From Marsupella aquatica (Eukaryota > Plantae > Marchantiophyta): 64,000 nucleotides of DNA. Under the pieces are notes generated by a model. The model made no database searches. It saw only the letters and a program-made list of their open reading frames with translations, and was not told the DNA's origin. The position numbers and the translations under genes are program-made. The stretch spans positions 13,060,828-13,124,827 of the forward strand of contig OZ316894.1 of the NCBI GenBank assembly GCA_973895155.1. The letters run 5' to 3'. Below, in pieces: positions 4,070 to 60,780 of the stretch (position 1 is its first letter; every line of letters begins with the position of its first letter).

Positions 4070-4329
4070 GATTGTTCAATTAAACGGAACTTCTGACCCG
4101 TACACTGCAAGGGAGCACATATATAGGATGGTCAACTTACATAAACAAATTAAAAATGCACCACGTGCTTTCCATTTCAAAAATTTCTGTGTCACATACA
4201 TAGTTTACTGAAAAAACCAAAAGAAGTGTGACAGAGATTTAGCAGGACATGAAGTCTAAAGCCTCTAATTTGAACTGTCGCGAGAATGAACTCAGAATCC
4301 CAAGGGCCTCAGTCTACTCAATTCAGACT

Positions 4330-34470: not shown

Positions 34471-35413
34471 CCACGGCAAAAGTAATCCAAACTTTTTAAT
34501 GTTTCTTTTGTTTAAGAAAAAAAGTTTTGGTTTGAAGTTACAAAGAGTTTTCTTTGGTTGCCCGTTCTCTAGCTTGGGTTTCACTAGAAGAAACCGAGGT
34601 CATCTGAGACCACAATATGTGACTCATTTTGGCTCATGTGACTTCATTGTGACTCAACGTGACGTGACCCAGGCTGTGACCCTTGGAGTTGCAAAAGTTG
34701 AGACCAAAAAATGGAAGTCACTATTGATACTGGACATTGCGACTTGCTTGATACCCATTTGTGACTGATCTGTGACTCCATTATGGAGTCTAGCCTTGCA
34801 ATGTGACTTTAATTAGTCATAGGGTAAGTCATGCCCATGACTTACTTGCCCTTAACAGCACCTAGCTTGTGACCTTTTAGTGTCACATAATAGAACCATT
34901 TGGGTCACACAACAAAACCATTTGGGTCTCTATATAGTCATGTTCATAACTAATAAGGTTGAGATGGAATTTAGGGAAGTTGTAACCATGACTAATGAAT
35001 TGTGTAACAGTTCATAAGGAGAGAGAGTCAATTCATGAGCACTCCACATTGCAATACATAGAAACACTCATGTTGACACTTTAGAAGTATAACATATTGA
35101 ATACAAGAAATGAACAAAGCATGAATGACATCCACATGAAACAAAGCATAATCTATAAGCAGATCCTACATAAAACATTCATAAGAATTCAACGGAATCA
35201 CAATATTGCTAAAAGATGATGATCAATTCAATTACAATGGAATAGTTTACAATGTCATCAATGTAATTAAGAGAAAATAGGAACTTGTAAACTGATAATT
35301 GTTTGAAATAATTGAAAGCAAATGCATGATACTATCAATTATCAAACATGATAATGCATTGCTTCTTGAATTCTAAAATCTACAGAGCATGACTCACACT
35401 ACAAACAAATAAT

Positions 35414-38364: not shown

Positions 38365-38374
38365 ATAATGACAT

Positions 38375-41300
38375 TGTTGTGTTCTCCATAGAATCAATCC
38401 TTCCATTCCATTTCCGAGGTGTTACATAGTGTGTCCCTAAGGACTTGGTAGTTAGGCAGTTATTCCTGCCCCTGGTAGAGTAGACATAACCCTGGGTTAT
38501 ACTAGGTCTAACTAGGGTTATAACACTCCCCCTTGGGGGTAACATTTCTGGGTAAATGATACTCCCACTTGTGTCTACTCTGTTTTATATTGAGGCCTAA
38601 GCTATTATGTCTATTTAAATGGGGATGTAACCTCATTAAAACCCCCCCTCCGCCTTTGTGGGGGGAAAGAGTGTTACCATCACCCATTTGATAGTTTGGC
38701 CTATTGCCCTTATCTTGGTCACTTTGTAACAGTAAGTGTTCTTCTTTCTGTTTTACTGGGTGTATCTTTATGATTGTCCAGTCTGGTGAACTGGTTCTTC
38801 GTAGTCGTAGAGTTCTTTGTTGTTTGTTGATGGTGTTGGATGGTATGTTCTGTGTGGTCCGAGTTGTATTCTTGCATTTCAGGTGGTTGGGCGCTCGGTC
38901 GGGCGTCCTGGCGGCAATGCTCCCCCTGAACACGAGGTAAGTGTTCTCTATGGTCTCTATTGTTCCTGCATCAACTTAGAGAAGCTTCGTAAGCCGATGG
39001 AATGTGAATGGTCTTTATGGATAGCCGGTGGTAGTGATTTTGTAAACATATCTACGTGATTCAGCTGGCTTGCTATCCATTTAACGGTAATACTGTCACC
39101 TTGTTGCTCGTGTGTGAAAAAGAATTTCAGAGCGATGTGCTTCGTCTTATCACCCTTTATGAAACCTGCCTGTATTTGGTCCACACAGGGCCTGTTATCT
39201 TCGTAGATCGGTGTGGGCGATGTCAGTTTAGTTGTACCTGTGTGTTCGCTAATGTGGTTGAGCACATGCCTGAGCCAGATGCACTCCCTGCTTGCTTCGT
39301 ATAGCGCTATGATCTCTGAGTGGTTCGAGGATGTCGTTGTTAATGTTTGTTTGCTGCTTTTCCAGGAGATCGCCGTTGTTCCTATCATAAACACGTATCC
39401 CGTCTGTGACTTTGCATCCTGCGGATCTGATAGATTGCCCGCGTCCGCGTAACCTGTTAATGTGTTGTCTGTATTTGCAGGGTAAAACAGTCCCATGTCA
39501 GTTGTGCCCTTAAGGTATCGTAAGATCCTTGTAATGCCATTCCAATGGCGAATGGTCGGCTGTGCGCTGTGACGTGCTAAGAGGTTAACTGCGAATGCGA
39601 TGTCAGGGCGGGTCTGATTTGCAAGGAACATGAGAACGCCTATGGCAGATAGGTATGGCTTGTCTGGACCAAGTAGTGGTTCGCTTTCATCTCTTTTCCG
39701 AAACATGTCTTTATGTTTATCGAGTGATCTTATGTCCATCGGGGATTTGACTGCATGAGCCTTTTGCATATGAAATTGCTTTAATATTCGCTGTGTATAC
39801 GTGGTTTGATGAAGTAGTATGCCTCTTGGTAAATGTTTGAACTGTAGGCCAAGGCAAAACGTAGTTTGCCCCAAATCACGCATTTTGAAAACTCGTTTGA
39901 GTAATTTGATGGTTTCCTGCATTATTCGACTGGTACCGAATAGGTTTAGGTCATCCACATAGATGGCAATTATAATGAATTCTTGGCCTTCTCTCTTAAG
40001 GAAGATGCATGGGGCAATATCTTGATTTTGGAAACCCATGGCGAGCATTTCAGCTTGGAATCGCTTGTACCAAGTTCGGCCACTCTGCTTCAGGCCGTAC
40101 ATGGACCTGAGCACTTGCACATCATATCGTATTCTGGCTTGAAGAGCCTTAGTTTGTCTGCCCTTGCTTATGTGGGGTTTCAATTTTATACTCTGTGAGA
40201 TACGTTGTAGTATCTCTTGATTTGAGTGGTCAAACATAGTGTCCTCTGGTTTGTGTGTTGTCGTGGGCAGTTTCTCCCCATGACAGTGTTCTTCCACCCT
40301 GTTCATTAATTCTGGTGGAGCTTCCATATGGATTGTCGTATCTAAGTGGCCGTATAAGTATGCTGTTACAATATCTAACTGATGCACGGATAATCTGTGA
40401 TGCAGTGAGAAGGATATCAGGTATCGGTAAGTAATTACGTCCATAACGGGTGAGTGGGTGAGATCGTAGTCTCTGCCTGGTATTTGAGTAAATCCCTTTG
40501 CTACTAGCCGTGCTTTATAGCATACTACCTCCCCCTGTGCATTTCTCTTTTTAATAAAGGTCCACTTGTATCCTGTCAAGTGGATGTCTTGTGGGGCTAG
40601 TGTGATCGGGCCGAATACTTGTCTGGAGATCAGGGAGTCGAGTTCCTGATTGATGGCTTTCTCCCACTCTGGCCAGTCGGATTGTCTCTGTGCTTCTTTC
40701 ACCGTCAGTGGGTCCGGTGTGTCTTCTTTTATTTGTTGTGCTATTGTATATGCAAATGTTTCGTCTGGGAAGGTACTCTTTCTATCCCATATATTGCCGG
40801 TTATATTGTAATTGATGGCGATTTCTTCGTTTGTTTCGGTAACGGGTTGGTTTGGTATAATGTGGTCGTTGTTGATTGCTGCAGGAGTGGATGTAGTTTG
40901 GGCTGAGGGCACTTGGCGCCTCTGCCATGGTTGCTTGTCAGTAGCCCCGGGTGGTCTTCCCCGTTTGGCCCTTGGCACCGAGTATTCGGCTGGTTGCTTT
41001 GTCATTTGTATACGTGATGGGGTGTTCGCTGCGGGTATGTGCGATCTTGTCACTTTTGCCGCATCTGCGAATGAATCTGGTAACTGCTCCATCATGCTTG
41101 TAAGGTGGAGTAGTCTTTGTACTTCACTGTTGGCTTGGCCCATTCTCGGGTCATTCCAGAACTCAGATTGCGTCTGCCAATTGAGTTTTGTATTGTCGTC
41201 TTTGTGTTGTTGTGATCTATCTTCTAGACTTGGGAAAGTGCTCTCGTAGAAGTGGCAGTCCATGAATCGGGCTTTAAACACGTCCGTTGTTGTTGGTTCC

Positions 41301-43968
41301 AGGTATCTGATGATGGAGGTGGAGTCTAGGCCCACATAGATGCCCATTTGTCTCTGTGGGCCTATTTTGGTTCTCTTCGGGCCCATAATCGGAACTAGGA
41401 CCTGACACCCGAATGTTCTCAAGTGGGAGACGTCGGGGATGTGTCTGAATGCTAAGTGGTGTGGAGAGGTAGAATTGAATGATGATGGTCGGTAATTGAT
41501 GAGTGTAGCTGCGTGTATTATTGCATGGCCCCATGCCGAAAGTGGTAGGTTGGTTTGCATAAGAATTGGTCTAGCTATGGTTTGTAGCCTTTTGATGAGG
41601 GATTCAGCGATCCCATTCTGAAAATGGACATGGGCGACCGGATATTGTATCTCTATGCCGGCTGATTCGCAGAACTCTTCAAAGGTCTTGGAGGTAAATT
41701 CTCCAGCATTATCTACTCGAAGAGTTCTTATTGGGAAGTTGGGGAATTGAGCTTTGAGTCTCAATATGTGCGCCAGGAGTCGGGGGAATACCATGTTTCT
41801 CGTGGATAATAGTGAGATTCTTGACCATTTTGATGATGCACAGATAATGGCCAGGAAGAAGCGGAATGGTCCGCTTGTGGGTTCAATTGGACCGCACACA
41901 TCCGCGTGGAGCCGCTCTAGGAAGTTGGGTATCCTTGTTTCAGTTGTAGGTGGGGATGGACGTAGGATCAGTTTTCCTTTGGAGCAAGCTAGGCAGGGGT
42001 TCTTCATAGCTGTTGGATGTACTGTCTGTGGTATGCCTCGGGTGTCTCTCAGTATTCGCTGGAACATTGTGGTCCCAGGGTGGCCGAGCCTTCTGTGCCA
42101 TATTTCTGTAATGGTTTCCTTATGTGGTTCTGTATGGTAGGTATGGGCTTTGGTGGTATAGAATCCCAGTGGGAGGGCTGTAAACGTTTCCTTTATCCCC
42201 GTTTGTTTGGGTGTATTTGAAGTAATGTGCAGGACTTCCTTGTTGTTCTCTATGCCCGTCTGTATATGTAAGTTATTTGCTCTAATGTCTTTAAAGCTCA
42301 AGAGGTTTCTTGTTGCCCTTGGGGCATAGATAGCCGATTGAATGTATATAACTGTGCCTCTGGGCAGGATGATTGTTGCGGGTCCAGAGCCTTCCTCGAT
42401 CTGGTGCTGGCCCATTATGGTCGTTATCTTTCGTTGTGATGGTATAATATATTTGAAGTATACTTTGTTTTGTAATATTGAGTGCGAGGTACCACTGTCT
42501 ATAATGCAGTGGTTTAGTTCGTTTATTGATGGTTGGTTTCCCGAAGTGATCATATGTATTTCTGGTAATATTTCCGCTGATTCAAGAAAGGTGCCATATG
42601 TTTCTGATTCATTTGCAGTAAGGCTTTTCTTGTATAGATCAACCAAGTGTGCTGGGGCTCTACATGTTCTTTGTGTGTGCCCTTTAGTGCCACAGCGGAA
42701 ACAAATTGATGGGTTTTCAGCGTTATCTGATTGTAATCGTTGGCTGCTGTTGTTGCGTTGCCAGGTAGGTCTCCAGTTGTATGTGCGGGGTCGTCCGTAG
42801 CCTCCTCCCTGGGATCCATTGTTGTTTCCGCCTCGTCGAGGGCCACCTCCCCGACCTCTGAATGGTCCTCGTCCTCTGAATGATCCGCGGCCTCTGGAGT
42901 TGCCTCTTAAACTTCCTCTGCCTCGGGGGTAAGTTCCTTGTTCTCGATTTGGTGCGTTGTAGTGCGCTTCTGATGGTGGCTGAGGTGGGAGAGTTCCTGG
43001 GGGTCATTGTTGGGTATTTTGTAGGAGAAGTAGTTGGTGCTTCTCGGCTAATAGCATGTGTGCTATTAGCTCCGAGTATTTGGTAAACCGCATATTCCTA
43101 TATTGCGTTGAGAGGACGAGATTAGATGAATGAAGTGTCGACAGAGTTTTCTCAATTTGTTCCTCATCAGTGACTGGTTGGCCGCAGATTGCCAACTGCG
43201 CCACTATCCGGAAAAGCTCGCTGTTGTAATCGGCAATGGACTTATGATCCTGTACGCGGAGGTTCACCCAGTCATGCCTGGCTGCTGGCAAGAAAATCAT
43301 CCGTGTGTGGTCGAATCTGGAAAGGAGTTCTTCCCATAGAACCCGGGGGTTGAATTCGTTCATGTATTGTCTCTTGAGTGAATCTGCTAGGTGGTGCCGG
43401 ATTAGAATGAGAGCTTTGGCTTTTTGCTGTAGCGTTGGGCCCGCATCCGTTATGACTGTATCCTGAAGGTCCTTGGCGGCTAGGTGTGCCTCCACATCGA
43501 GGGACCAAGAGAGATAGTTTGATCCGTCGATGTGTAGAGCCTGGAACAGTAATTTTTCAATTGAGTTTGCGGATGTCGACATGCTCCAATATAAGTTTAA
43601 TAAAGTTGTGATTTGCAATCCCCTATTCTGCGCAAGGACTTCGCTCTTGGTCGTCCCTCTTTGTCAGTTTCTCCCTCGTCGGATTGCTACTTCCGATTGT
43701 CCAAATTGTGGATCGTCCGAATTATGGATCAGAGAGAAAAATGTTGTCCGCTGTCCCTTTGGCTGACGAATTGATCGGGAGGAAAAAAAATGTGTGGAGC
43801 GCTTCGTGCTGATAACGTGTTGTGTTCTCCATAGAATCAATCCTTCCATTCCATTTCCGAGGTGTTACATAGTGTGTCCCTAAGGACTTGGTAGTTAGGC
43901 AGTTATTCCTGCCCCTGGTAGAGTAGACATAACCCTGGGTTATACTAGGTCTAACTAGGGTTATAACA
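38375..43968 (-). mobile_element. Full-length Ty1/Copia retrotransposon, Bianca lineage
   Basis: Identical 151-bp LTRs at 43818-43968 and 38375-38525. TSD GACAT, PBS at 43804-43817, PPT aagggggag. Confidence 0.96.
38957..43618 (-). CDS. Gag-Pol polyprotein (gag, CCHC, PR, INT, RT, RH) interrupted by one in-frame TGA at 43004-43006
   Basis: IDGSNYLSW gag, CFRCGTKGHTQRTC, IDSGTSH, WHRRLGHP, HADVCGP/RVDNAGEF, IYVDDL and GYADA are all in one frame. Confidence 0.92.
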
Positions 43969-43973
43969 GACAT

Positions 43974-44699
43974 GACATTGTTATGGATCCTCTATGAACT
44001 TGCTTGGCCATAATAAGAACCTGCAGCATCTCCAAGTGTCTTCTAAGGAGGATCATCATTTGTGTTTGGAATGGGAAGGACAGCTTTAGGTTTCACCAGT
44101 AACGTGATTAACACTACTGAATAACCTGGGGGAATCCTCTTGCCATGGAACGTTGTAGAACCGACCTACACTCTGCCAAATCATACTCGTGTTCCACTTT
44201 CATCAACAGCTAACAAGCCACTTTGTCCCTTAGCATTAGGTGCCTTCCCCACTTCCACCTTAGATCTTTCTACCAGCACCGATCTTGGAGGTTTGTATGA
44301 AACCTTTGACGTGGCTCTGCTCCCAGCAGCAGACTTGCTTTGTGTGCACATGCTTCCTCTCTTCACAGTAGTGACGCTAGGCTCAATAGGTTCCTATGTT
44401 GGGACTGTCACAGTAGCAGGTTCCTCACTTGGGAGTGCCATACCAACTAACTCTTTGGTTGGATTTATCACAACAAGAGGCACACCTATCGTTGACAATG
44501 ACATATTCTGCAAATCATTTATCTCTGCAATGGGATCAAGATCTACATAACACAAACCTTGCTCCACATCACATGAATCTGGCTCAATGGTATCATTGTC
44601 ACGTTTGCTGATATCCTCCTTTGCCCCAACATTGATATCATCCAATCCCTTGCCAATCTCATCCTCAACCAAACATGGTTGACTGCCCTCTGTCAAATT
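43974..44699 (-). pseudogene. Distal part of an older TE ORF that continues from 58612 (host of the nested insertions)
   Basis: Acidic, low-complexity reading. Joins 58612 across the CACTA TSD. Confidence 0.4.
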
Positions 44700-45454
44700 C
44701 ACTACTACATATTGGCCCCTTTTGCGAAGCTTTTTTTTTACGCCGGGATGGTCTTGCGATGTCATCGACTTCAGATATTTTGTGATCAAACACGCATCAC
44801 AATAAACCATGCTCACAGGTTCGCAACATGGTGTTGCGAAGCTAAATACCTTGCAATTTGTTTGAGATCGGATTGAATTCGCAACTCTTTCAGATACTAT
44901 TCGTCTCGCAAAGTATTTGTGGATCCGCGACCATCACGATTGCATTTGGATCTCTTTTGTTTCATAATTTAGCGATAATAATGTACTCAAATATATATTG
45001 TGAACCTATTAGCTTCGCACAATATTGTGAAGCATAAATAGTCGCAAGTTACCGAATCCAGTTGATTCGCAAAGTTGAGAACACATTGGCATCACAATTA
45101 CCGATGGTGTGTTATTCACAAAGTGTTCAGAAGTTGCTTCTTGACAAGCTTGAAAATGTTTTGCAAAGAGAGTTGTTTGAAAATTTTGTAGAATGGAAAT
45201 GTTTGAGAGAGTTTCTTTACAAGATGGAGAATGCATGTGTTTAGGTTACAGCTAGGGTTTTCAAAAAGGTGGCATGCATGAGGATAGCTTTGGAAACGGC
45301 TAAGGTTGCATATATAATAGTGAGATGAAATTTCAAAGTCCAATTAAGTGTTTGCAAAACAAAAGAAGAAAAGTAATATGTTAATATAAATAAAACCATG
45401 ATAGTTAGTTTAGGGTCAAATTCTGGGCCCACAACAAGTTTTACTACTAGTGCA

Positions 45455-48400
45455 TCAAACCTGGTCCTCATCCTCGCCTCCATTTGACACAATAATAACG
45501 TCAGGTTTTTCCGAGATAATGGAACGGGACCGTGGCACATACGGTATAACAACTGACCACTCTAGGTCTGGTGGGTACGGAATATAGAAACACTGCTCAA
45601 GGTGACTTGGGAATGTAAATGGTTCAGATGTTTGCCAATGAGATGGTTGAAAGCTAGTTGCTGATGTCTTCAGTCGAGTAAACCCACACTCATCAAGAAG
45701 TACCGTGCGATTATCACCAACCAGGTGAATTTTGAACCACTTACACTTGAAGACATACTCTTCAAATTTGGAATCGGCATCATAGGATATGATCAAGATC
45801 TCCTCAATCTTCCCATAGTGAGGCACCACATCTCTGATCACATTAGTGTCATGACGGCTACTTTGTGAATCTTGCATGAACTGCCCTTGAACTCCACAAT
45901 CAAAAGTTCTTCCCCTCTTCTCATCAAGGTCAGAAATCCTGAAATGCCTCCCTTGTGTCCACATTGCTGTTCTGGTTTGAACAAGTCTTAAAGGACCATG
46001 AACAATTGTTCGAACCTCAGGAGTCATATCTGGAAAATGTGATACATTCTCACCTTGGGCCACCATAGCATCCAACTGAAGTACTTTCTCCTTCATATAC
46101 TCAAGGAACTTTGGAAAGATCCTTGGGCGACGACTCTCCCTCTTTGCATCCTCATAAAACTCTCTCCAATCTTCCATCACATTGTTGTTACTCAACATGA
46201 AAGTACTAACCTGTGTCAACTCCACTGCGGTTAGTAAGCGTGTTTTTTTGCACTTGTTAAACGGTCCTCCTCCACTTCCCTCTCTTCCATCCAAGTGCGT
46301 GGAAAACTAGGATCAATGGTAGCTAAGTTGTTACTACAATAAAACATACTCTCAGCTGCCAAGTATCCAGTTGCCATGCTCCCCTCCACTCGTGCACGGT
46401 TCCGTACATAAGCCTTTAACACGGCCATATACCTTTCCAGCCAATACATCCACCTACAATGCACCAGACCGGCAATGGCAACCTCCCTCACAAGATGAAC
46501 GAGAAGATGCACCTGACAATCAAAGAAGGAAGGAGGGAGGGCCTTCTCCAACTTGCATACCACCTCTGCTGCCAATACCTCCATCCGTGGTATCTCTTCT
46601 TCATATATTTCCTTTGAGCATATCCATCTCAACAAAGTGCCCAGTGACCAAAGGGCGTCTTGCACTTCTTCACTCCCCAAACCTATGATTGCCACAGGAA
46701 GTATATGTTGTAGTAAACGATGATAGTCATGTGTCTTGAGATACATTGGCCATTTATGACTGTCCTCCATCCCAAAAGCCTTACGTAGATTGGCACCATA
46801 GCCTGTAGGAAACCGCATCTGCCCTATGCGTTGTCGAAACTCTCTTCTTTCACCAACACTCAAAACCCATGGAGCTGAAGGACGATGTTCCATCCCTGTG
46901 GATTCATCAACTGTTATCCATACATCTGGATGTCGTTCTAGATCCTGGCATGCCTCCCTAAAATTAATGTTCTTTTCCCCATAAAAGTGCTTGATCAAAG
47001 CCTTCCCAACATTTCCCTCTATATGCATGGGGTCTAACAAGTGATGAATCTTCAACTCAGGCCAATAGGGCAAAGTGGCCAGTATACCCCACCTTGTCAA
47101 TCCACTACCATCAAATCCCATGGCATCTTCAGGTCTGCCACCCTATCAGCTATGGATTTCCAATACGAAAATGTTGTGCGGTCAGGTATCTCACGCTCAT
47201 CACCATTGATCATGTCAAAGTCTGAAAACAAAAGGGGGTCAGACCTCATGTGATGCCCAAGTGGAAGAAACTTGGTATGACCAAGGTAGATTATCTTGTG
47301 CAGCCATTTTGAGTACTTGGCCATATCGTGAAGGCTTGGACCACAAGTGGAGCATGCCTTGTACCCTTGAGTTTGGAACCCAGAAACAAACCCAAACCCT
47401 GCTCACAAAATAACATTCTCAATTAGAGTCAAAGGAATTGAAAAGTTCATGTACATAGAATTAAAGAGGGACTTCCTTCCAAACAAACTTGATCTCCAAT
47501 ACATGAAAAAAATACAAATCCATACCACTCACCTGGATAGTCATGCATGGTCCACATAATGATTCCCTTCAATTGGAAGACACGTGGTAACCCTCCTGTA
47601 GTTTTCCGACCATCATATGCCCATACACCCCCCCATAATTTATGGAGTTCCCCAACCAAGAGCGCCAAGTAGGTGTCCATGTTTTTTACCTTAGATGGAC
47701 CTGGGATAATCAATGATAGCAATAAGAATCCCTTTTTCATGGACAACCATGGGGGAAGGTTGTAATTCATAACAACCACCGGCCAAACCGAAGTAGGGCG
47801 CCCTTTCCCTCCAAGGGAGTGTGGGCTTACCCCATCTGATGCCAACCCCAACCTCACATGACGAGGGTCACGTGCAAATTCTGGCCATTGTGACTCCACA
47901 TGCTTGTGAGCAGGGGAATCAACTGGCAACCGCATGACACCGGCCTCTGATCGATGTGTCTTATGCCATACCATCAATTCTGCCAAGTCAGAACATCGGT
48001 ACATGTGCAACAATCGAGGAATAATAGGAAACCAACGAACAGCTTTTCTAGGCACCTTTGAGGTCAACATGTTGGTTTCATATCGAGGCTCTTGACAAAT
48101 TGGACACTCAGTTGCGCTAGCATTGGTCTCATGATAGAGAATGCAGTCATTCACACAAGCATGAATGATATGGTATTCCATGCCAATGGATGATAAAACC
48201 CTCTTTGCCTCCTTCCAAGTTCCTGGCAACATATTTTCACTAGGTAACAAGAGATCATGGCAAATTGGAAACAAATCCGATAGTAGCGCATTGCTTGCCT
48301 TGTGTTTTGCCTGAAGATTCATCAATGCCAAGATGGCAGATAGTCTATTCAAACGAGCACCCCCATAAATAGGTGTTCTAGCATGTGCCTCAGCTTCTTC

Positions 48401-50033
48401 CCATTGTTTTTGTCCTTCAGGTGTACATTGAGGCCTTGGATCATGTGCAACATTTGGTGGAGGGTCTCCTTCATTGGGTGGGACACCTCCTTCACCACCA
48501 ATGTCTACACCAAACCAATCTGTCATGAAGTCATCCATGGCTGACTCTTGGTCTTGCATGACCTCATAATCTGTCCGAGGTGCCCCTTCATCTGGACTGT
48601 CATTATCATTGTCACTTGATGAGGAATCTGCTGATGATGTTTCCCCGTCTTGTGGCAAGCCCATTTCTTGATATGTAGCTCTCAACCTCCTTGGCAACAT
48701 ATCTTGACTAGGCCGCACATTCTATAGACAATACAATAAAGTATTCACAATGAAATTAACGCCAAATATAGTAGTGCTCAAAACATATTATTAACAATAT
48801 AAAAAGAACATGTCATTACAAAACATACGTTCACATACGATGAACGTATAATACATGTCCCTAAAGTAATCCTAATCCCATTCATAATGTGTAAACAACT
48901 CCTCTCCAGCCAGAATGGTCCTATTAGCTACAACTAGACAATGGTCATGATGATATCTCTGCCCATAAGGGGCTAGAGGGGGACCATCAACAAAAACCCA
49001 TTCACAGTTTTTCCTACGCTTAGGCCGGGTCCCCACAGTACTGTTGATGAAACCGGCAATATTCCCACTACGGATGGGATCACCATCAATTATACGCTGG
49101 TCACAATACTTTCTGGTGCAACCATCAAAAGTATCCATGTCCAATGCATAAGTCTTCCACTCAGGGTGTTGAACAAGGATCATGTTCCAATGTCTCCTCT
49201 TGTAAATGGGTCCACCATACGGGAACAACGTTGGTCCATCTGAAGAGCGCCCTTTTCCACCCATATCATCCACAATAATGTCCTGACAAGAGAAAATCCC
49301 ATACCCATGCCTCTCCCCTAGGGTCGAACTCTTGACAACCCAACGTCTTCCCCAAACTTCTATCTCCTCACCATAGGTTATATCACATGGCAAACCAAGG
49401 CACTCCGGATTCCAATCCTTTATGATAGGAACACACTTCCCTGTGAAGGTACAAGGGCCCCATCTACCATCAACCCTACAAGTGTACTGATCCACTTCCC
49501 CTCTAGGCTGTCTTTTTGACTTTTTTTTCCCTCTTGTAACAATACCGTCACCCTTAATTGTCCCAACACTACCTTGCCCTGCTGCCACTAAACGAAAAGC
49601 TTGTGAAAGTGCCGAGCCTATAGCATCTAGAACTCCTTGTGAGGGAACATAGGGTGTTGGTGTAGTGGGTGTAGGCCTACTGGATACCTATAGGAAGAAA
49701 TGGAACCAAGTGAGTGTGATGAACCTCCCAAATTTTATTTTATGCTACCTAGCAAGATTTACAAAATAAAATGGAAATCACAGTAAGTTTACAACTCACC
49801 ATACGGGATGAAGAAGCTCCCGGTGTAAGACCTCGATGTTGGCCATATCGAGCAATGTGCTCCGCACATACATATGACTTTTGGACAACCATCCCCACAC
49901 ATTTTTTACAACCACAAAGTTGGCGTGGTGGACCACTAGGTCGACGTACGGTTGGTTCAGGTTGAGGAGGAGGATGACTTTCTTCATCGGAAGAGGAATC
50001 TGATGTGGTGGAAGTTGTAGAGGATGAAGACAT
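45455..50033 (-). pseudogene. CACTA TnpD/Tnp2 transposase (TAD, Transposase_21, DUF4218, DUF4216), two frameshifts
   Basis: Exons 50033-49800, 48721-47533 and 47398-45455. Motifs CGCKKC..HIARYG, IHACVNDCILY, RLGLASDG, YNLPPW, MHDYPG, LDPMHIE and WMYWLERYM. Frameshifts near 47120 and 46245. Confidence 0.9.
48872..49687 (-). CDS. SET-domain lysine methyltransferase-like exon inside the CACTA transposase gene
   Basis: Open frame with VKSSTLG..GYGIF, LFPYGG, IDGD..GNIAGFINS, and VVANRTILAGEELFTHY. The acceptor ttcctatag (ending 49688) is in phase with exon 50033-49800, giving ~349 aa. Confidence 0.82.
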   Translation of the reverse strand, partial: VSSRPTPTTPTPYVPSQGVLDAIGSALSQAFRLVAAGQGSVGTIKGDGIVTRGKKKSKRQPRGEVDQYTCRVDGRWGPCTFTGKCVPIIKDWNPECLGLPCDITYGEEIEVWGRRWVVKSSTLGERHGYGIFSCQDIIVDDMGGKGRSSDGPTLFPYGGPIYKRRHWNMILVQHPEWKTYALDMDTFDGCTRKYCDQRIIDGDPIRSGNIAGFINSTVGTRPKRRKNCEWVFVDGPPLAPYGQRYHHDHCLVVANRTILAGEELFTHYEWD

Positions 50034-50464
50034 CTGACAAGTGTAGCAATTGGAAGGCGATTAGTAAAAACTTCACCAAAACCATCATTGATAATCCCTA
50101 CCTAAACATATTAAAAAGAATTGACAGAAAAATACCTTTATGAGACCCGGGCTTAGCAATGCCTTGACGGATCTTGTGGCTCAAATTTCATGAACCAAAT
50201 CTGGAAGGAGGGGAAAATCTGCCAATATACAATGAATTAAGCCATGCCTTATGGTGAACCAGAAAAAAAGGATGATAGATTGTAACCCTCCATATTTACA
50301 GCAATGACTAGAAATGCATGAGAAAATGTTATACCTTTCAGATGCCCGGGCTCTCGCAAGGCATTATCATGCATTAGCCAAAACTTTAAAAAACATGGGG
50401 AAGTGCCCTACAACGCCAAAGAGTTTTCCTCTCCATGTTAATGAGATAGACAAAGAAATATAAG

Positions 50465-51300
50465 TAACCCAAACCCTACCCTAAACCCAAACCATGAAAT
50501 GAAACCCTTCATTAAAACCTAACCCAAATCCCTCAATCACCCTAAACCCTTACCCTTATCCTAACCAATACCCAAATCCCTCATTAAAAATTCAAACCTT
50601 TACCCTAAACCCAAACCCCTACCCTAAACCCAAACCATGAAATGAAACCCTTCATTAAAACCTAACCCAAATCCCTCAAGCACCCTAAACCCTTACCCTT
50701 ATCCTAACCAATACCCAAATCCCTCATTAAAATTTCAAACCTTTACCCTAAACCCAACCCAAATCCCCCAATTACATATAAAACTCTTACCCTATCTACA
50801 CCTTACTTTACCTATATAGGCCAACCCCCACCCCTATAGTTATTCTAAACTTCACCCTAACCCCTAAATTGAGGCCCTTTTTTAAAACTTAAGCAAAAAT
50901 TGTACCCCCTCAATTAGAACCAAATCCAACCCTATATCATGTTACACCCCAACCCAAACACTTACATTAGAAACCCAACCCCTTTAAAAAAACCACAATT
51001 AAACCCCCCAACTAAAAACCAAACCCAATCCCTTTAAAAAACAACCACAATTCAACCCCTCAACTAAAACCAAACCCAACCCCTGTAATTACTCACAACC
51101 TAATGCAAACCTCTACCTTGAACCCTAAGCCAAACCCATTAATTTAAACCCAACCCTTTTATTCCAACCTAACCCAAGTTTTAACCCCCTTAATTAAACC
51201 AAATACTCCTAGATTAAAACCAAATATAAACCTAACCTTTAATTAAACCCAAACCTTTGTTAACTTATATTCTAGTTATCCTTACAACCCAAACATCCAT
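50465..51300. repeat. Telobox-like (AAACCCTA/AAACCC) degenerate array with a ~142-bp tandem duplication
   Basis: 50468-50610 is repeated at 50610-50760. The C/A-rich tract lies between the two divergent CACTA genes. Confidence 0.8.
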
Positions 51301-51754
51301 TGACACCCCTTCCATGTTAACTTATGGGCACTTAACATACCTTAAATGTCGTTTGACAAACCTTAATAGCCGTTTGACACCCCAAAGTGTTTTCCAACCC
51401 TAAACCGATAAGACCTGCCTCACAAATTATTTCACAAGTTAGAGAATCTTTTTGCGAACCTACGACCTTCGCACTTCCTTCGCAAAAACAGAGGCCGAGA
51501 ATGATTTTTTGGGTCTTCTGCGGGTTGCGATGGCTTTGCGAAGGGAATAGATTCGGAAGTGCCTCACAAGTTGCGAGACTATTTGCGAGGGCGCAGGCTT
51601 CGCAGTTTCCCATGCGTATGTCATCGCAAACCCGTTTTTGAACGGCGTAAACATCGGCGGGAGCTCACATTCGGGCTCATTTCAGTTTTTGAGCGAGACG
51701 AGAAGGGCCGGGGCGCGCGCAACAGTACGAGGGAGACTGTGAGAGAGGGGAGCT

Positions 51755-53795
51755 ATGGCTACCGGTGAGGGGAGTGGAGGGCAAGGTGGTAGTGGTAGTG
51801 GTAGTGGCAATGGGGGAAATCCAGAGAAAGAGAAGAATGCCTGGGCAGACTTAGTGGCCCAACATCTCAGTGCTGCACAATTGGGAGAAGTGAATCTCAA
51901 TTCTCCAACAGGGCTTGCCTCTTTGAGTGCCATTCTTGGACAGGTTTTGCAAACTGGGATTGTAGCAGGACAAGCTACTAGAGAGGGGGAGGAGAGGGCC
52001 GCAGCTGAAGAGAAGGCTAGAGAGAAAAAAAGGAAGAGAGAGGAAAGAACTAAGTCGGGAGTTGCCTCTCCTCAAGCCCTAGAGAAGCAGAAGAGAAGAG
52101 AGGAGAGAGATTCAATTCGAAAACAGAGGGAGGAGCAACGTCAGAAAGAGGAAGCAAGAAAAAAACTTCCATTCATTGCCTTGGAGACGAGTGGGACTCC
52201 AACTGAGCTAGCGTATGCAGGGGCTAAGAGCACAATCAAGCAGATTATCACAAGCAATTTCTCACGAGGCATGTAGTGGGGGAAGATTGAGAAGGCAGAG
52301 CGAAAGAGGGTCATCAACCAAATCAAGGATGCATTTCGCAATGGGCCTGACATAGATGAGCAATGGTTGGCAGATAAGATTTCAAATTCTATGTCTCAAA
52401 TGCGATACCATGACAGGATGAAGATTAGAGCCCACCTGAAAGACTTGAGATCATACAGGAACTTGCGCAGACCCCTCCACTTCACCGAGGACATCTGGAA
52501 TTCGTTTTACAAGATTGAGGTGCAAATTAAGGCAGCTCACAAGTTGGAAGAGTGGAAGGGCAATATAGATCGAGCCTTGAAAGCAAAGGAGGCCGGGAAG
52601 CTCCCCCTTGACCACGACCTGAAGCCACTTGAGCAGAAGGTAGCTGAGATGCAGAAGGTGGCCGACCAGGAGGGAAAGCCGCCCAAGCGTTTCACAGATG
52701 CAGCCAAACGAGTGAAATCCACCCCCAATCCAGTCCACAAGTTGGGTCAAGGCGAGCTCCCCGGCCTCAAGTCACACTTTGTGAGTGCCTCTTGCTCCTC
52801 CCTAACCTCTCTATTCCTTTCAGAGTTGTGCAATGCAAGTGAATGACATCCCCGAAGGTTCTTGCTGTTGTGCATGCTTGCTTGGTTACTAGTTTAGGGC
52901 AACTCTGACACTTAGAATTTCTGGCAAATTTTTAAAAACTCTCGGGAACACAGTTTGCGAAGGTGTTGCGATGCGTATTTGTTCGCAAACCCCTTGCAAA
53001 GTCTATCATAGACTTTTTCCATTTCAATTTTCCGATGCCTTTGCGAACAAATGCGCATCGCAAAATCCATCGCAACGCCTTCGCAAAAAAAGGTGGTTCG
53101 CAAGTTGCTATGCTTATAGGTTCGCAAATTTGAATTTTAAATTTTTTTTGGGTCATGTTTAGTAGTTGAGGATTTAGGCGTCACTTGTGGCTATAGGGTA
53201 TGCTTAAGGGCAAATTTAACCAATTTTAATTGGTTTTATGCATGGCAGTATCGGAGGTACAAAAGGAAGATATCAAAAAAGCATATTGAGGTGGCGATAG
53301 AGCATGGACGAAAGTACCTCTTTGCGATGGTAGATGCCGAGTTGGCTACTGTAAGTGTCTAAGTGTGAACCATATGATTAGCATGCGAACATTGTGAGTG
53401 ACCCTTTATGTCTTGCGGAAACTAATGATATGTAATGGATGCAGGATTCGGATGAGCCTGAGGGGTCGGGTGCTGATGTGACCAGTAGTGATGATGATGA
53501 GGGGGCTACTCCTGGTACTAGTGGTGCTCGAGGGGGGAGTAGTCGTGAGGTAGGTTCTTCCCACCGTGGTAGTGGTGGTAGTCGTGTGTCATCAGCACAC
53601 GTTGATGACCAGGGGGAGGAGGAGGACCCTGAGGATGAGGAGGAGGAGCAGGAGGGGCAGGAGGAGCCAGAGGAGCAGCAGGAGCAGGAGCGCCGACGGC
53701 CATCATGCACCCGTCACCAACAGGATCCCCGGAAGGATAAGGGCAAGAAGCCAACCAAGAAGCCAACCAAGAGGAGCCGCAAGAGCCCATTCTAG
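51755..53795 (+). pseudogene. CACTA second gene (TnpA/PTTA-like), transcribed divergently from the transposase; one in-frame TAG
   Basis: Exons 51755-52780, 53249-53350 and 53445-53795, phase 0 GT-AG. TAG at 52274-52276. WGKI..RVINQI and RPLHFTEDIWNSF motifs, acidic/basic tail. Confidence 0.6.
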
Positions 53796-54026
53796 TTATT
53801 TTGTAGAGATACATGCATGAGAGTGACTTGTCATGCCGGAGCTTAGGGTAGGAAGAGGCAGCATAGGTTTAGAAGGGCGGACCTAGCATCAGATATTTCC
53901 CCCCTCTTGTCCATGTATAGGGTTCTTTGAAGCCCTATCATTTTGTTCATGCTTTTCCATTTTATAAAACAACAATTTTGCCTTCCACATTGGGTTCCAA
54001 GGAAAACCCCTCGCAAATAATGTATT

Positions 54027-57000
54027 TGTTGTAACTCATACTTGAGTTAAGTCTACCTTTGGGATAACTACCTATGTAACTACCCTAACTACTTAGGCCG
54101 TAGCCACATGTACATATTCTACCAAGAGTAAAGATGGAACTAACTCTTTGTCTCATTTCTCCCACAACACGTTATCAGCACGAGCCTAAGACTGGCTGAA
54201 TTTTTTAGGCCATGACTGATTCACTCTAAGACAAAGAAAGAAGAAAAAGATGTGATTCGAATGTGCCAAAGTTTTTTTTGCGAGAGCTGCTTGAAGCGCT
54301 GCGCGAGCAATTTTTCTTTGGGAGTAAGGCCAAGGAAGAATTGATCCCGGCTATGGTGAATTGAATATCAAGGCGCCATCTTATTCGATGCACGCTTTTC
54401 AAGTCGGTACAGCAGTAAGGCAACAACAACAGTCAGTCAGAGCCAGTGTTGTTGACGCGCTCACGAATCTGGAAATGAGCTAGCGATTGGAACTCCAGCC
54501 ATTTCGAGGAGTCGGAAGTTGGTGGCCAAGGTGTTTTCTCATTCCCTGGCGAGCAAGACCCTCACACCAACTACATCTTTGATTGATAACATTTCTAGCG
54601 AACACCAGCTCACTGACGGCTGGTCGTGAGCGCACAACAGATTGGAGTACGACAACCTACTTTGTTTCCTGTGTTTGCTTCCAGTTCTACTCGAGTCTAC
54701 CGCTGGAGGCATTCGAAATGGACAAAGCAGTAACAGGATGTTGTGATTTCTTTCCCGACACTACGCTTTCCCGACACTATGCTGACAGAAAAGCAGGACA
54801 AACATGGGGAAATTAAACCCGTTGGTTGCATCACTGGAAAATGAAAGAAGGATTTGGAGCAATCGCGTAAGAAGTGCGAAAAGAGGCAAGTGAAGAAAGT
54901 CGCGACTTGCAGACCATAGAAAGTAGCGACCTCCACTTCAGGCAGCGAGATCATCACACAAGCAAACCGATCCAAGGCACAGATCACAGCCTCAATTCCA
55001 TAAGGAACTCGTAAGGATAGCAGGAGATAAGGAAATTTTTCTTAGAAGATTCGAAGAGAACTCAAGAAGAAAGTAGAACAGAACGGAAGTCTATCCCCAA
55101 CCGAGGATCACAAGATTACATTCTTCGTCAGTCATTGATGAGTCCTTCGCCCTTCGAGAGTAACCGATCCTGAAAAGCAGCATCCCCCTCCAGGGTGAAA
55201 AGGATAAGAAGAGCAAGACGACAGCAATAGAGAGAAGACGATCAAAAAGCAGAAAGAAGAATTCGATTAGGACATCGCGACCTCATAGGGGCAGGCCTCG
55301 CTCGATAGCCAATGATAGCCGCACGGGATGCAGCTATCTTGGAGCAAAATTTGGCTATCACGGAGAGAATAGCTGCATATGAGGAGAGAGACGCTACTCT
55401 TCTGCTACGTGACGTAGCTTACGCTGATCGAGATTCCGCCATGGAGGAACGCGATGCTACTGTTACAACTCTTGATATTTCAGCGAACAAAACACCCTTG
55501 TCCAAAAGAGGCCATCGGTGAAAGATTCAAAGCTCTTCCATCCGCTGAGTATGAAAAGAATTGTACTATTGTAGGAGTTTTTCATTAGGCTCCCTTGTCT
55601 TCCACACGGTACAGTGCTGTTGTTCAAGAGCAAAGTGACCTTGGCAAGATCGGCGACGCCAAAAGAGTCAGTTTGTGGGTTTCCTAGGAAGAGGAAGCTA
55701 ATAGTGAAATCTACGCTTGATCGCATAGTGCGTTCGAAAAGATCATGTCGTTCTCCCTAGGAGCATCGTTTGGAGCTTGGAGATAGCGACGAGGCCGATT
55801 ACCTGAAGGGCCCGAACGATGATGTTCACGACGTTGATAATGTGCGATACCCCATTCCCCACTGCTCCTGTATAGGTGTGAGACAGTAGTGTTACAGATG
55901 GGGTAACGGGGGCTGGCAGTCCTCGCGTTGCACTACTATGATCTCCATGAACTTTTTGGAACAACTCGGCTCCGAAGGGATAAATGTAAATTATCCTGTC
56001 GATTTGAAGGAGCACTGGGCAAATCATGGAACTAACCGTTACGTTACAATTCGATAACAAGATGAAGCATGCTCCGTCATTCAAGATCAACGACATGTAG
56101 GGAAGTTTCCGTCAATCATATTTGTGAAGCTCTCTTGACAGGCGCAAAATGTTTTGGTTTCGGGGGCCAAGTGAGGCACACTGGGCGTTTGCCGAGATGA
56201 TACGTGGTTATACTGACGCATCTGCATTTTGGAACAAGTTTTGGAACGAGTCATCAGACCTCCTACTTCCAGTCCGTGAAGGCGACCCCATACGGAAGCT
56301 TGATTCATAAGGAACACCCATAGTTACGCCTAATTCCCAATTGAAAAGATAAGAGGAGAGAAGACACTACAGAAATCGAACGCAGATCGTGAGCAAGGCA
56401 GGCAGCATCGCGAACATATCAAACGCGAAGGGAGAAAACTTTGAAGGAAAGAATGCGAGACAGAGGAGAAACAATAAGCACCAAAGGCAAGGAGGATAAA
56501 TCCAAGAACATTGAAGGAAGCACAAACCCAAAAAACCAAAGAGAGAACGCGAGGAACGCCAGGAGAGAGAAGGACGTCCAATGCAGACGGAGATCGTGGT
56601 ACAGGCTACAGACGAGACGCCGGGCAAAGGAGGCAAACAAAGAGAAGCCATCAAACCAAAGGAAAGTCCTCCACATTTTCTTCTAAGAAGACCATTTTAC
56701 ACTAAGTAATGGAGAACTAAAGAACAAAGAGACTTTCTCTTCAAAAGGAAAGAAAAACCAAACAACAAAGCATGAAGTAAGGACATAAAGAAAGAAGCTA
56801 AAGTACAGAACCTACATGGCGACAAATGATGATTACTTCCACCAATTAATTTCATAAATTCAGGGGGAGATATTTTTCCCAAGGGTGCCTACTACACATA
56901 AAATCCCCGTGCCTACTACACATAAAAGCCCTGTGCCTACTGCACATGGAAGCAAATGGGTGCCTACTGCACACCCAGCCAGAAAGGAAAAATAAATGAC

Positions 57001-58049
57001 AAATTGAGGGGGAGACCTCAAGTAAGACTTGACATCAAGCAATGTAACCCATGGGATGTGCCTATTGCACAAGTGCCTTTCGCACCAATGAATACCTAAA
57101 AATGGAACTCTATTCCATGCATATGGCAAATCATGAAATCTAAGGAATTTTTATAAATGATTGAACATGGTGTTAACACAATCACTTACCAATACTTGAT
57201 GAGGTATACTGGATATTAAAGTACCATATGATAATATGAGGTACAATACCAGGTCATAAGGTACCATAAGGTGAGACATGGCATGGTAAGGCACCATAAG
57301 AGATGGTGCGCCATACCCCAATATGATAACCCTACGTTGTGGATATGGTACGTGATGTGGTGCAAATAGGTTATGCCCACACCAAATCTAGGGTTAGACA
57401 CCCAATCCAATTCCAAGGCCATGGATTACACCATATCACCTTCATTTTGTACTAATACTTTACTTTGTCATGGCATGTAATCGGTGACCATCAAGGAGTC
57501 TCCATTTCCAGATTGGAAGGAGACACGAGAAACAATCAACCAAGGAAGATCTTCAACAAGCCTATAGTGTTGACAAACACCTTAAGAGACTTTGTAGAAA
57601 TTAAACATACACTATATGCTTAAACCCAAATATGTTACACCCATGGGGATGGTAATACTCTTTCCTCCCACAAAGAAAGTAGGGGAGGTTTTAATGAGGT
57701 TACATCCCCCACTTACACTTTACCATGCAACATGAATTATAAGACATCTATTAGGAGAAGCTTGACATTCATTTATAGTAGACTTGAGATGGCTACACCA
57801 TTTATAAAATAGGCTAGACATAAACAAAACCTATTGTATACCACTGAATATACCCAAAGTAGACTCTTGATTGTAACATTTCAACCCCAATGTTACAAAG
57901 GGGGAGTGTTGTAACTCATACTTGAGTTAAGTCTACCTTTGGGATAACTACCTATGTAACTACCCTAACTACTTAGGCCGTAGCCACATGTACATATTCT
58001 ACCAAGAGTAAAGATGGAACTAACTCTTTGTCTCATTTCTCCCACAACA
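54027..58049 (+). mobile_element. Non-autonomous LTR retroelement, copy 2, with larger cargo, nested in the CACTA
   Basis: Identical 143-bp LTRs at 54027-54169 and 57907-58049. TSD GTATT, same PBS and PPT as copy 1. Confidence 0.93.
55312..56057 (+). pseudogene. BPC: Captured BBR/BPC (BASIC PENTACYSTEINE, class II-like) GAGA-binding factor fragment
   Basis: Alanine zipper [61 protein letters not shown] at ~55850-55950. C-terminus [20 protein letters not shown] ends at 56057. Confidence 0.88.
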
Positions 58050-58611
58050 GTATTGAATCCTGTGTGATCATAATTTTGCGAACCCTTTAAGAACTCATTC
58101 CCATCGCACAATATTAACCCCAAGGCGTCACACTTTTTGAGTCAATTAACTTCAGAACTTCAGATCCAAATATGTCGGGTTTTTGTGATACTTCTAGGAT
58201 CGCACTTTCCTAATCGCAACCGTTCACAAACTTCTGAAATCACCGGTATTGCTCTTTGTCATACAATCCCCATCAAAACAATTGAACCAGTATCAATCGC
58301 AAATATGATGCGATGGTAAATCCGTCTCAAATATTGACGCCCGCGCGGGACGTGTGCGTGTATGTTTGCGAACCTTATGCGACGTATAATGGATCGCAGA
58401 AGTATTGAATATTGCGAACCTCTTAGCTTCTCAGTTTGCCATGATGTTGCGATGTCGTTGCGATGGTCCACGTGCGAAGTTATTAGGTTCGCAAAGTGCG
58501 AAGGGGGTGCGATGCGCGTATGTTCGCAATATCCAAAATTATGAAAATCAGGGGCTTGTTAGTTGCGATGAGATTGTCTTCGCAAAACCGGCCGATAGTG
58601 TTGTAGTGATT

Positions 58612-60780
58612 AGTTGCATGTATAGACTGCAACTTTGTTGCCTCTAAATTGCAGTGACTATTTGCCAGGTGATCATACTTCTTCTCTGCAACACATGTCT
58701 TATTCTCTATGGACACAACAACCACAATATATGTTACTAAAAATAACACAAAAACAATAGATTTTATAATCATATCCCACAAAGTTATAAGGGCCTTACC
58801 TTCAAGCCTACATGTTGTTGGCATGCCAAAAGAGTGCATAGACTTTGCCACCTCAACTGGTGATGGTGGAACTCCTGCAGAACTACAATCAATTTTATCT
58901 CTCACCAACACAACGGCTTCCATTAATGACTTGAAGTTCACATGGAACAATTAAGTCAGTCAATGAATTCAAACGTTCATTGATCTCTAGAAGACATGTT
59001 TCCACAGCCTTCAAATGATCACTTATCTCCGTAAGTGAAGATCCACCTCCCTACATGACACAGGGCAATAGTGAATCACTCCATATGAAATGTTGGGCAA
59101 TATATGCACAATCAATGATATGTGTACACCTAAAATTCAACGCAGGTCATTCAATTACCAATCAGAACTCATTTAACTTACCTGCTTGGAGGATTCAGAT
59201 GCCTCACATGCCCTGTTGTTCACAATTTCAGCCCTCAACTCTTCTTTTGAAGGGCTTTGCCCCAATTGGGCTTTCTGCACATGCATGGCAAACACAAGTT
59301 ATCATTTTCCAATGAACACTGAAAAACAAAGTCAACAGGTCGACATAGTGTAGCATGAATTACATAACTTGCCATTGATTCTTACCAAGCGTTTTGCTAT
59401 CGGTGCAGTGTCGGTCCTTCTTGTCCGATTAAGGTTTTGAACACTCAACTTGGCCTCGGTCATCTGTGAACTTTTCTTTTTTGCAGCATTAGTCACAAAA
59501 TAAGCTATTAATTTTGTCCACACTTTATCATCACAACTTGCTGGTGGAGGCATATCTGGCTTCTCCCCACCATCCTTCCAAGCCTTATGCATTCTACATC
59601 TCTCTTGCTTGATGATTTTACCTGCTGTACTTTCTAGGCAACCTATGTCCATGCCATCATCACTGCCCACATAATTCCATTTGGCAACAACATTTTCACA
59701 TACAGTCTTCCAATCTTTTGGATGCTACTTTTTAAAATTAATAACACTCACATCTAACCAGCGCAATACTTCAGCTTTCAAATCAGCATGCCATCAATTT
59801 TTGCGAGGACACTCAACATCCACCCATTGTCTGTCATTCAGCTTTACTATCCCTTTCTTCTTCACCTCCCCTTGTGCACTGCTCTCTGTAGTACTGGGCG
59901 GTGTAATATTAATGGGCACCCCCTGATTCACCCTACCTGGGGTTCTGAAGTCACCTAGGCAAATACAATGTCATTCATGCTTGAGAACTATATACACCTT
60001 ATATTTATTACAAACACCTATTGGCACCATTAATTCAATGCATCTCTTTAACAAAAATTGAACCAACATATATACCTGTAGCTCTACCAATAGACATTTG
60101 TGCAAGGACTGCACTCTGGAATTGTTGCGACCTTGGACCACCTGTCCAGCCTAGTACAGGGGTCCAGCCTAGTACAGGGCACAGACGTTGTCACTTTCTA
60201 GCTAGGCATGTACAAACATATGTACTGATAACTTAGTAAATCAATAAACCGTAGGGAAACAAGTCAACATTCCAAAATACCTGCCCCCTTCTGTGCTGCA
60301 TCTGCATAGGGGCATTAGTGAATACTTGCGTCGATGGTTCGATTGTCCAACCTGCACACATACATTTGCTATCATTGTACATGTACAGAATATACCCACA
60401 TGAATGGACTACAGATAAAATGAGTTCTTCCATTGCAAACTGTTGCATACATTACCTGCCCCTCTTCCGACATTTGTAGGTACTGTGTTCTAAAAGCCTT
60501 GCCAATTACCTTCATCACCTTCCCAGCCTTGTTGATTCCAGGACCCATCACCATCCTCCCAACCTCGTTCAACCCATGTCTGTCCTGGTGGACATTGAAA
60601 CTCATCATTACCAGCATTTGCCCAATCAGGTTGAGCAAAATCTGCATGCAATGGCAGGTGGAATGAATTTCATGTTGTATGAATTCAATCCCAAACAATG
60701 TCAAACATTGCTATGCAGTCTGAAATTCACAAGTGCTACTTTTTCAACTTTCCTTTTTCTAGTCCCCTCTAAGTGAGACA
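58612..60780 (-). pseudogene. Older CACTA TnpA/PTTA-like (Transposase_24-like) gene fragment
   Basis: PPPASCDDKVWTKLIAYF..KKKSSQMTEAK.SVQN at 59332-59930, with stops and intron-like segments. Confidence 0.5.

Follow-up and report, generated by a model that had tools for sequence, protein, structure and literature searches.

A SET-domain exon inside the transposase gene of a CACTA transposon from the liverwort Marsupella aquatica, with a predicted shared first exon

Results

The CACTA element and its surroundings

The window, that is, the whole 64,000-nucleotide stretch of Marsupella aquatica DNA that was analysed, contains a 13.9 kb CACTA element at 44700-58608, in which a SET exon lies between a zinc-knuckle first exon and the Tnp2 body of the transposase gene (Table 1). 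Terminal inverted repeats, a 3-bp target-site duplication, a Tnp2/TnpD transposase and subterminal repeats are all present, and these are among the features of CACTA elements given in the consulted part of PMC4158355. The CACTA...TAGTG termini match in 9 of 10 terminal bases. However, the terminal 10-mer by itself is within chance expectation (5 seen, 2.9 expected), and the ends are fixed by an empty-site joint between 44696 and 58609 with three shared letters, which was found in contigs of three of the four public runs (X1, X2 and X4). The ends that the sequence-only reading had defined by TIR and TSD were borne out. The source of the joint may be paralogous copies of the host repeat that holds the insertion.

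The pentamer TCGCA/TGCGA, a motif picked by eye, occurs nine times in 44700-45300 (15 per kb) and 19 times in 58050-58608 (34 per kb), compared with 0.9 per kb in 1-44000. Clusters of a short repeat flank the second gene as well as marking the two ends, with densities of 22-34 per kb versus 0.9.

Table 1. Features of the CACTA element in the window
Feature	Position	Strand	Remarks
Target-site duplication ATT	44697..44699		at 3' end of transposase gene
Terminal inverted repeat CACTACTACA	44700..44709	+	inward: subterminal TCGCA/TGCGA repeats
Transposase exon 3 (DUF4218, DUF4216)	45455..47398	-	Pfam; DUF4218 113.6 bits
Transposase exon 2 (Transposase_21/Tnp2)	47533..48721	-	Pfam 134.7 bits; phase-0 distal acceptor
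Spacer, 150 nt, AT-rich	48722..48871	-	73% AT, three TGTA words, one AATAAT
SET exon: linker, about residues 1-64; N-terminal beta-hairpin and SET domain, 65-271	48872..49687	-	own stop
GT-AG intron, 112 nt, exon 1 to SET exon	49688..49799	-	same position in L003-L006
Exon 1: Ser-rich start and CxCxxC...H zinc-knuckle (transposase-associated type)	49800..50033	-	234 nt, 78 codons
ORF2, second gene, divergent	51743..52846	+	51-59% identical to L003; in-frame stop 52274-52276
Nested LTR element	54027..58049		143-nt LTRs identical, GTATT duplication
Terminal inverted repeat CACTACAACA	58599..58608	-	subterminal repeats precede
Target-site duplication ATT	58609..58611		from the sequence

The divergent second gene, ORF2, gave no significant Pfam or Atlas match and no Transposase_24 match; at the position of its stop codon, the related metagenome locus L003 encodes Glu. 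Between exon 1 and ORF2, degenerate telomere-like (TTTAGGG-type) repeats and a 143-nt tandem duplication occupy 50465-51260. The nested LTR element is a later insertion from outside the CACTA family, and an empty-site joint across it (54021-58050) was present in all four runs. Two related, non-coding-looking LTR copies were seen at 35410-38401 and 54023-58086, with stretches 95-99% identical, the second of which is the one nested in the CACTA element. The CACTA element itself sits in another high-copy repeat (about 44000-44696 and 58612-60500) with a weak Transposase_24 match at 59332-59724; this hosting repeat is probably another CACTA element.

Elsewhere in the window, an intron-containing gene on the forward strand (1-2385) has an N6/N4 DNA methylase domain at its end (PF01555; 35.3 bits, exceeding the cut-off). 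Tail to tail with it, a stretch on the reverse strand (about 2800-4075) resembles, as judged by eye, a PIF/Harbinger transposase remnant; the scanned piece of it had no Pfam match. The two together may be another transposon with an epigenetic enzyme as cargo. Pieces of an Alliinase/TAA-TAR-like host gene (EGF_alliinase, Alliinase_C) lie at 6473-8875 on the forward strand, and a young Copia element with identical 151-nt LTRs, a gag frame (43004-43663) and a 1348-aa pol-containing frame lies at 38375-43968 on the reverse strand.

The transposase gene and the state of this copy

Exon 1 ends at a phase-0 donor (ATG/GTGAGT; the slash marks the splice site). The near acceptor, CCTATAG/GTA at 49687, opens 271 codons up to a TAG at 48874-48872, yielding a SET exon of 816 nt, and the far acceptor, TCTATAG/AAT at 48721, opens into the Tnp2 frame. 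Exon 1 is predicted to be common to both products, and the 150-nt spacer is predicted to serve both as the 3' UTR and poly(A) region of the SET isoform and as the 3' end of the long intron. Exon 1 had been described as a transposase-associated Zn domain; the CxCxxC...H knuckle agrees with this, whereas the match to Pfam Transpos_assoc, at 16.7 bits, stays under the 27.7 cut-off.

The window copy is decayed, with two frame breaks in Tnp2, the stop in ORF2 and the nested LTR element. The two Tnp2 frameshifts, noticed earlier, were confirmed as 1-nt breaks near 47131 and 46242. Locus L001 is in frame, and contigs of other copies in X1 carry the extra base at the two breaks (in depth units, 586 of 586 and 594 of 782, where contig depth is not taken as copy number). 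The L001 transposase also has two introns (2627-2774 and 3643-3789) that are absent from the window copy.

Weight had been placed on an intact SET exon next to a frameshifted Tnp2. This contrast turned out to be uninformative, because the copy is decayed, because the 816-nt SET exon would escape three lesions spread over 4.5 kb of coding DNA with a chance of about 0.58, and because the SET exon is broken in three of six related loci (L003, and L005 and L006 as judged by eye). A related idea, that SET was kept and the transposase lost as a sign of domestication, was rejected, as other copies lack the frameshifts and this copy is decayed.

Predicted splicing of exon 1 to two acceptors

The sequence-only reading had proposed that exon 1 (50033-49800) ends in a phase-0 donor with in-frame acceptors at 49687 and 48721 and a SET stop at 48872, and all of these coordinates were verified in the sequence. 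In the SET exon, the first methionine comes at residue 142, past the GxG motif; therefore, the window copy needs exon 1 to make the SET domain. Predicted gene models from Calypogeia and Sphagnum (P0001, P0069 and P0003) join exon 1 to the SET exon identically, whereas many Sphagnum models begin at an internal methionine instead.

The seven codons from the far acceptor to the first Tnp2 methionine read NVRPSQD in the window and NIRPSED in L001-L003, with synonymous changes, and 15 of their 21 bases are identical, compared with 23 of 60 in the intron (ungapped). The context of the far acceptor, AG/N-[VI]-R-P-S-[QE]-D-M, is conserved in L001-L003. Among 18 alignment columns with an invariant GT, only 49799 scores 4-5 of 6 in all rows against a donor consensus. 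The conserved phase-0 GTs within the SET exon score 0-2.

These conserved elements stand behind the proposal of an alternative exon; the splices themselves are predicted from the sequence. In four public runs of unspecified kind, the contigs read through both introns, and none of the nine joints listed fell at the predicted junctions, which is uninformative either way. Overall, we consider it likely that exon 1 is spliced both to the SET exon and to Tnp2.

A different route of expression has a small chance of being correct, in which the transposase would start from its own ATG (48700) under a separate promoter, or a SET-Tnp2 fusion would be made via an internal donor. Seven gene models do fuse SET parts to Tnp2, with differing break points, so the gene predictors disagree on the structure, and Arabidopsis Spm families are described, in the consulted part of PMC13547354, as switching between spliced and split-gene layouts. 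However, the fused models do not agree on where they break, the GTs within the SET exon score far below the exon 1 donor, and the AG and codons upstream of ATG 48700 are conserved. A search for longer fused homologues gave none among 2199 candidates, yet a profile search recovered fused models of 625-773 aa; hence, the blank was a miss.

Fold, activity and substrate of the SET exon product

The SET exon matched Pfam SET with 26.6 bits, above the 22.4 cut-off, and 20 of 20 aligned members matched it at E values up to 1. The motifs reported earlier were verified as G128-x-G130, Y157-x-G159, F213-I-N-S216 and G261-E-E-L-F-x-x-Y268, and no Cys follows Y268, as the chain ends three residues later. 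In SET domains, GxG and the Asn of the NH motif bind SAM, and the Tyr is catalytic. In an alignment of 84 sequences that reaches down to 25% identity, G128 is conserved in 75 of 76 relatives, G130 in 74 of 76, N215 in 83 of 84 and Y268 in 81 of 81, and E263 is nearly invariant. Ser replaces the His of the NH motif in 79 of 84. Among 196 relatives with the motif, 81 end within four residues of the Tyr, and only three carry at least two Cys after it.

With the 84 aligned sequences, AlphaFold2 modelled residues 65-271 at pLDDT 89.8 and pTM 0.85, whereas an earlier model from 24 close sequences (pLDDT 43.5) was unusable. Foldseek matched the model to SET8, MLL1, NSD1, ATXR5 and G9a at 15-23% identity. 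In the structural comparison (Z 12.1, rmsd 2.7, 130 aligned), EZH2, Set1, ASH1L, SET7/9 and SET8 were tied at Z 11-12. Predicted viral SETs matched at the level of the fold alone (8-21% identity), no better than these enzymes. We are confident, on the strength of the model, that the product has the SET fold. Searches of solved structures by sequence, with the single protein and with a 20-sequence profile, gave no matches.

The host SET classes (E(z), ASH, TRX, ATXR5/6 and SUV) tie at 15-26% identity, and no companion Pfam domain of a host SET class was found in the SET product. Because no host class is preferred, the substrate and the direction of the effect cannot be read from the sequence.

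In SAM-bound SET structures the cofactor site is formed in part by the post-SET segment, which points away in isolated EZH2, an enzyme that is inactive without its partners (PMC3868588, in the part consulted). As the chain ends three residues past Y268, the cofactor site of the element's protein looks incomplete. Together with the Ser in place of His, this means that either a partner, the N-terminal part or dimerisation activates the protein, or it is a pseudo-enzyme. The earlier term "minimal methyltransferase" is therefore overstated: the product has 349 aa, and the missing post-SET segment calls for caution about activity. Solved ATXR5 and LegAS4 likewise lack the NH His (printed alignments), which speaks against a dead enzyme. 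On balance, catalytic activity of the SET protein is somewhat more likely than not, and it would probably require that the SAM pocket be closed by a partner or by the protein's own N-terminal part.

A SET protein that is under selection but catalytically dead, acting as a decoy or reader by binding histone tails or soaking up PRC2-type partners, is unlikely. It would account for the lack of a segment needed to complete the cofactor site (PMC3868588, same part) and for the missing His, but the near-invariance of GxG, the Asn and the catalytic Tyr over the 84 sequences is seldom kept by dead enzymes.

A histone is the proposed substrate, at somewhat less than an even chance. It is quite unlikely that an active lysine methyltransferase modifies a non-histone substrate, be it the transposase, the ORF2 product or a host silencing protein. 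The shared exon 1 could co-localise SET with the transposase, and the fold comparison ranks SET7/9, a multi-substrate enzyme, level with the histone-specific classes; most structural neighbours, however, are histone enzymes.

Distinctly improbable is a histone methyltransferase that writes a repressive mark and damps host defence genes, rival elements or the element itself. The viral vSET writes a repressive mark on H3K27. EZH2 is among the leading structural matches, and EZH2 and ATXR5/6 are among those found by profile, but these rows tie within one Z unit with H3K4, H3K36 and H4K20 enzymes. PRC2 is described as repressing transposons in Marchantia in the consulted part of bioRxiv 2022.10.24.513474. 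An effect of the SET protein that favours expression of the element is less likely than not.

The SET exon is shared by moss and liverwort lineages

A protein search retrieved 41 homologues among 463 candidates, and 506 matches at E values up to 0.001 came from a profile search that covered 1.84 billion representatives. The named homologues came from Sphagnum species and the liverwort Calypogeia fissa, with 51-78% identity, plus one at 31%. Six metagenome loci are related to the window at 66-80% DNA identity. A seventh, L007, proved to be a false match that lies antisense to a bacterial transporter gene, and was dropped. As far as the contigs reach, the donor, both acceptors and the stop are the same in the six loci as in the window: exon 1 and its donor are retained in four, the SET acceptor in five, the far acceptor in four and Tnp2 in three (the L001 contig begins within the SET exon).

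Among 327 collected family proteins, the exon 1 knuckle was found in 19 by pattern match and a Tnp2 match in seven; most of the others are single-exon metagenome calls or fragments. None of the models runs from exon 1 directly into Tnp2, a join that a set gathered with SET queries could not reveal. In Riccia sorocarpa, the models P0210 and P0202 join knuckle and SET, and near-identical paralogues (P0256 and P0298) continue into Tnp2, as does P0237; the SET identity of these models to the window is 33-47%. In P0096, knuckle and SET lie in a single frame. SET and Tnp2 identities co-vary over five lineages (Spearman rho 0.73, with 4 of 120 permutations as high), two Riccia pairs being matched via paralogues. 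Distant SET homologues were found in Ginkgo and the fern Adiantum.

In a FastTree phylogeny (46 sequences, 199 columns, midpoint root, no host SETs included), the window clustered with Calypogeia and Sphagnum with a support of 0.996, Riccia occupied two other branches, and Calypogeia was spread over three. The nearest Atlas clusters were the family's own, all from Streptophyta, and two scans of viral contigs revealed no relative of the SET exon. Together with the fold-level matches to viral SETs, this speaks neither for nor against a viral origin. We also observed that Calypogeia SETs are far nearer to those of the moss Sphagnum than to those of the liverwort Riccia (P0001/P0069 vs P0003, P0097/P0210). 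This closeness may reflect old parallel families or paralogy, or horizontal transfer between bog bryophytes.

The recurrence of the SET exon in six loci and in Sphagnum, Calypogeia and Riccia speaks against its confinement to the window copy, and the 15-26% identity to any solved SET is far from near-identity with a host exon. The comparisons indicate a long-conserved family trait of moss and liverwort lineages, and not a one-copy capture.

Selection on the SET exon

Nei-Gojobori dN/dS of the SET core was 0.12-0.16 between the window and five loci (dS 1.3-1.7) and 0.26-0.32 between L004 and four loci. Tnp2 exon 2 gave 0.09-0.14 at dS 1.3-1.4, and exon 1 gave 0.12-0.24 against three loci. Codon maximum likelihood yielded 0.080, 0.096 and 0.239 for three SET pairs, with omega=1 rejected (2dlnL 127, 101 and 36), and 0.136 for Tnp2. 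Neutral evolution of the SET exon between subfamilies, with dN/dS of 0.08-0.24, was thereby refuted. For the same pair, the maximum likelihood dS was higher for SET (2.25) than for Tnp2 (1.27), and both are near saturation; therefore, an equal age of the two is roughly shown at best. Near-identical loci had ratios of 0.27-0.69 with intervals spanning 1, as expected for dead insertions. Among 30 listed variant sites of the runs, from the best-supported 40 of 179, 15 were synonymous and 15 non-synonymous.

These ratios indicate that the SET exon is under purifying selection, with dN/dS like that of the transposase, and they point to selection at the level of the element, by which copies with a working SET spread, and not to host domestication. 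CACTA elements capture gene fragments. That the SET exon is such a fragment, taken up from a host gene by one copy or a young family and drifting neutrally, would suit the ratios of the near-identical copies and the three broken loci, but is hardly credible given the same position in several deep lineages, the subfamily ratios and the low identity to solved SETs.

Discussion

The reading that we favour, tentatively and at below an even chance as a whole, is that the SET exon sits in the first transposase intron and that alternative splicing yields a chromatin-acting knuckle-SET methyltransferase that keeps copies of the element expressed. One promoter would drive exon 1. Use of the near acceptor, with polyadenylation in the 150-nt spacer, would give the 349-aa knuckle-SET protein, and use of the far acceptor, with the SET exon skipped, would give a transposase with its usual N-terminal knuckle. 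The knuckle-SET protein would then methylate a lysine in chromatin, to the benefit of the element. We identified no DNA-binding domain by which SET would be directed to copies of the element; the short-repeat clusters may bind an element protein, as the motifs of TnpA and VANC do. A more elaborate version is improbable, in which an old CACTA lineage of land plants writes histone marks of its own: the acceptor choice would be a switch between jumping and de-silencing, and the protein would represent a new class of post-SET-less methyltransferases, active only when complexed with element proteins and thereby marking element copies alone.

A SET domain and a transposase reportedly also occur together in SETMAR, in which a host SET gene is spliced with a domesticated mariner transposase at a single locus. 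As is predicted for the window family, SET and transposase are brought into one gene by splicing. In contrast to SETMAR, the window family is mobile, and SET would replace the transposase body rather than being joined to the transposase.

SET cargo of transposons is on record from the HarbingerS and MuDR families in Phytophthora (PMC12730594), from Helitrons and, within the EnSpm superfamily, from red-algal Plavaka elements (bioRxiv 10.1101/2025.02.11.637652); in the consulted parts of both sources, these genes are annotations from oomycetes and red algae, none of them assayed. HarbingerS, MuDR and Helitrons are, like the window family, DNA transposons that encode SET cargo, but they are described from other superfamilies and hosts, with SET as an accessory gene and not as an alternative exon. 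Plavaka PAG2 is closer, as there, too, an EnSpm-superfamily transposon has long retained a SET that is proposed to modulate chromatin. However, PAG2 is presented as a separate gene, an adenine methylase-SET fusion in a three-gene cassette with PAG1 and PAG3. By this description, the window family is set apart as a canonical Tnp2 element with SET alone and a predicted sharing of exon 1. No methylase or oxygenase domain was found among the scanned ORFs of the element, and its predicted product is knuckle plus SET; on these ORFs, it does not fit a PAG2-type cassette.

For the use of one transcription unit for a transposase and an accessory regulator, the model is En/Spm of maize and Arabidopsis, and the window family is predicted to behave alike. 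Alternative splicing of Spm produces TnpA and TnpD, and TnpA is anti-silencing (PMC13547354; bioRxiv 10.64898/2026.08.24.746577; parts consulted). TnpA, as portrayed there, is a DNA-binding, non-enzymatic and transposase-derived protein, whereas the second isoform of the window family would be an enzyme fold that was captured and is encoded ahead of the transposase body. A term search of the main texts of these two sources found no mention of a SET domain. In Arabidopsis, the VANC protein of the Mutator-like VANDAL elements counters silencing of its own family, as cited in both. According to these passages, VANC binds DNA motifs, induces hypomethylation and lacks SET, and its activity has been shown, whereas counter-silencing by the window family is inferred.

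In the literature searched, with Repbase and most subscription journals outside its scope, we found no SET in land-plant CACTA elements and none as a shared-exon isoform. What is new is, therefore, the SET exon in a land-plant CACTA element with a predicted shared exon 1; transposon-borne SET cargo itself was already known.

The SET family described here occurs in genetically tractable mosses and liverworts, in many copies, and encodes a compact protein that falls into no assigned SET class and is without the post-SET lid. With this SET-CACTA family, the question of whether transposons write their own chromatin marks becomes directly testable. If the favoured reading is true, an enzymatic route would be added to the known anti-silencing systems of VANC and TnpA. 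In addition, many annotated "SET-domain genes" of Sphagnum and liverworts are to be read as transposon cargo and not as host regulators.
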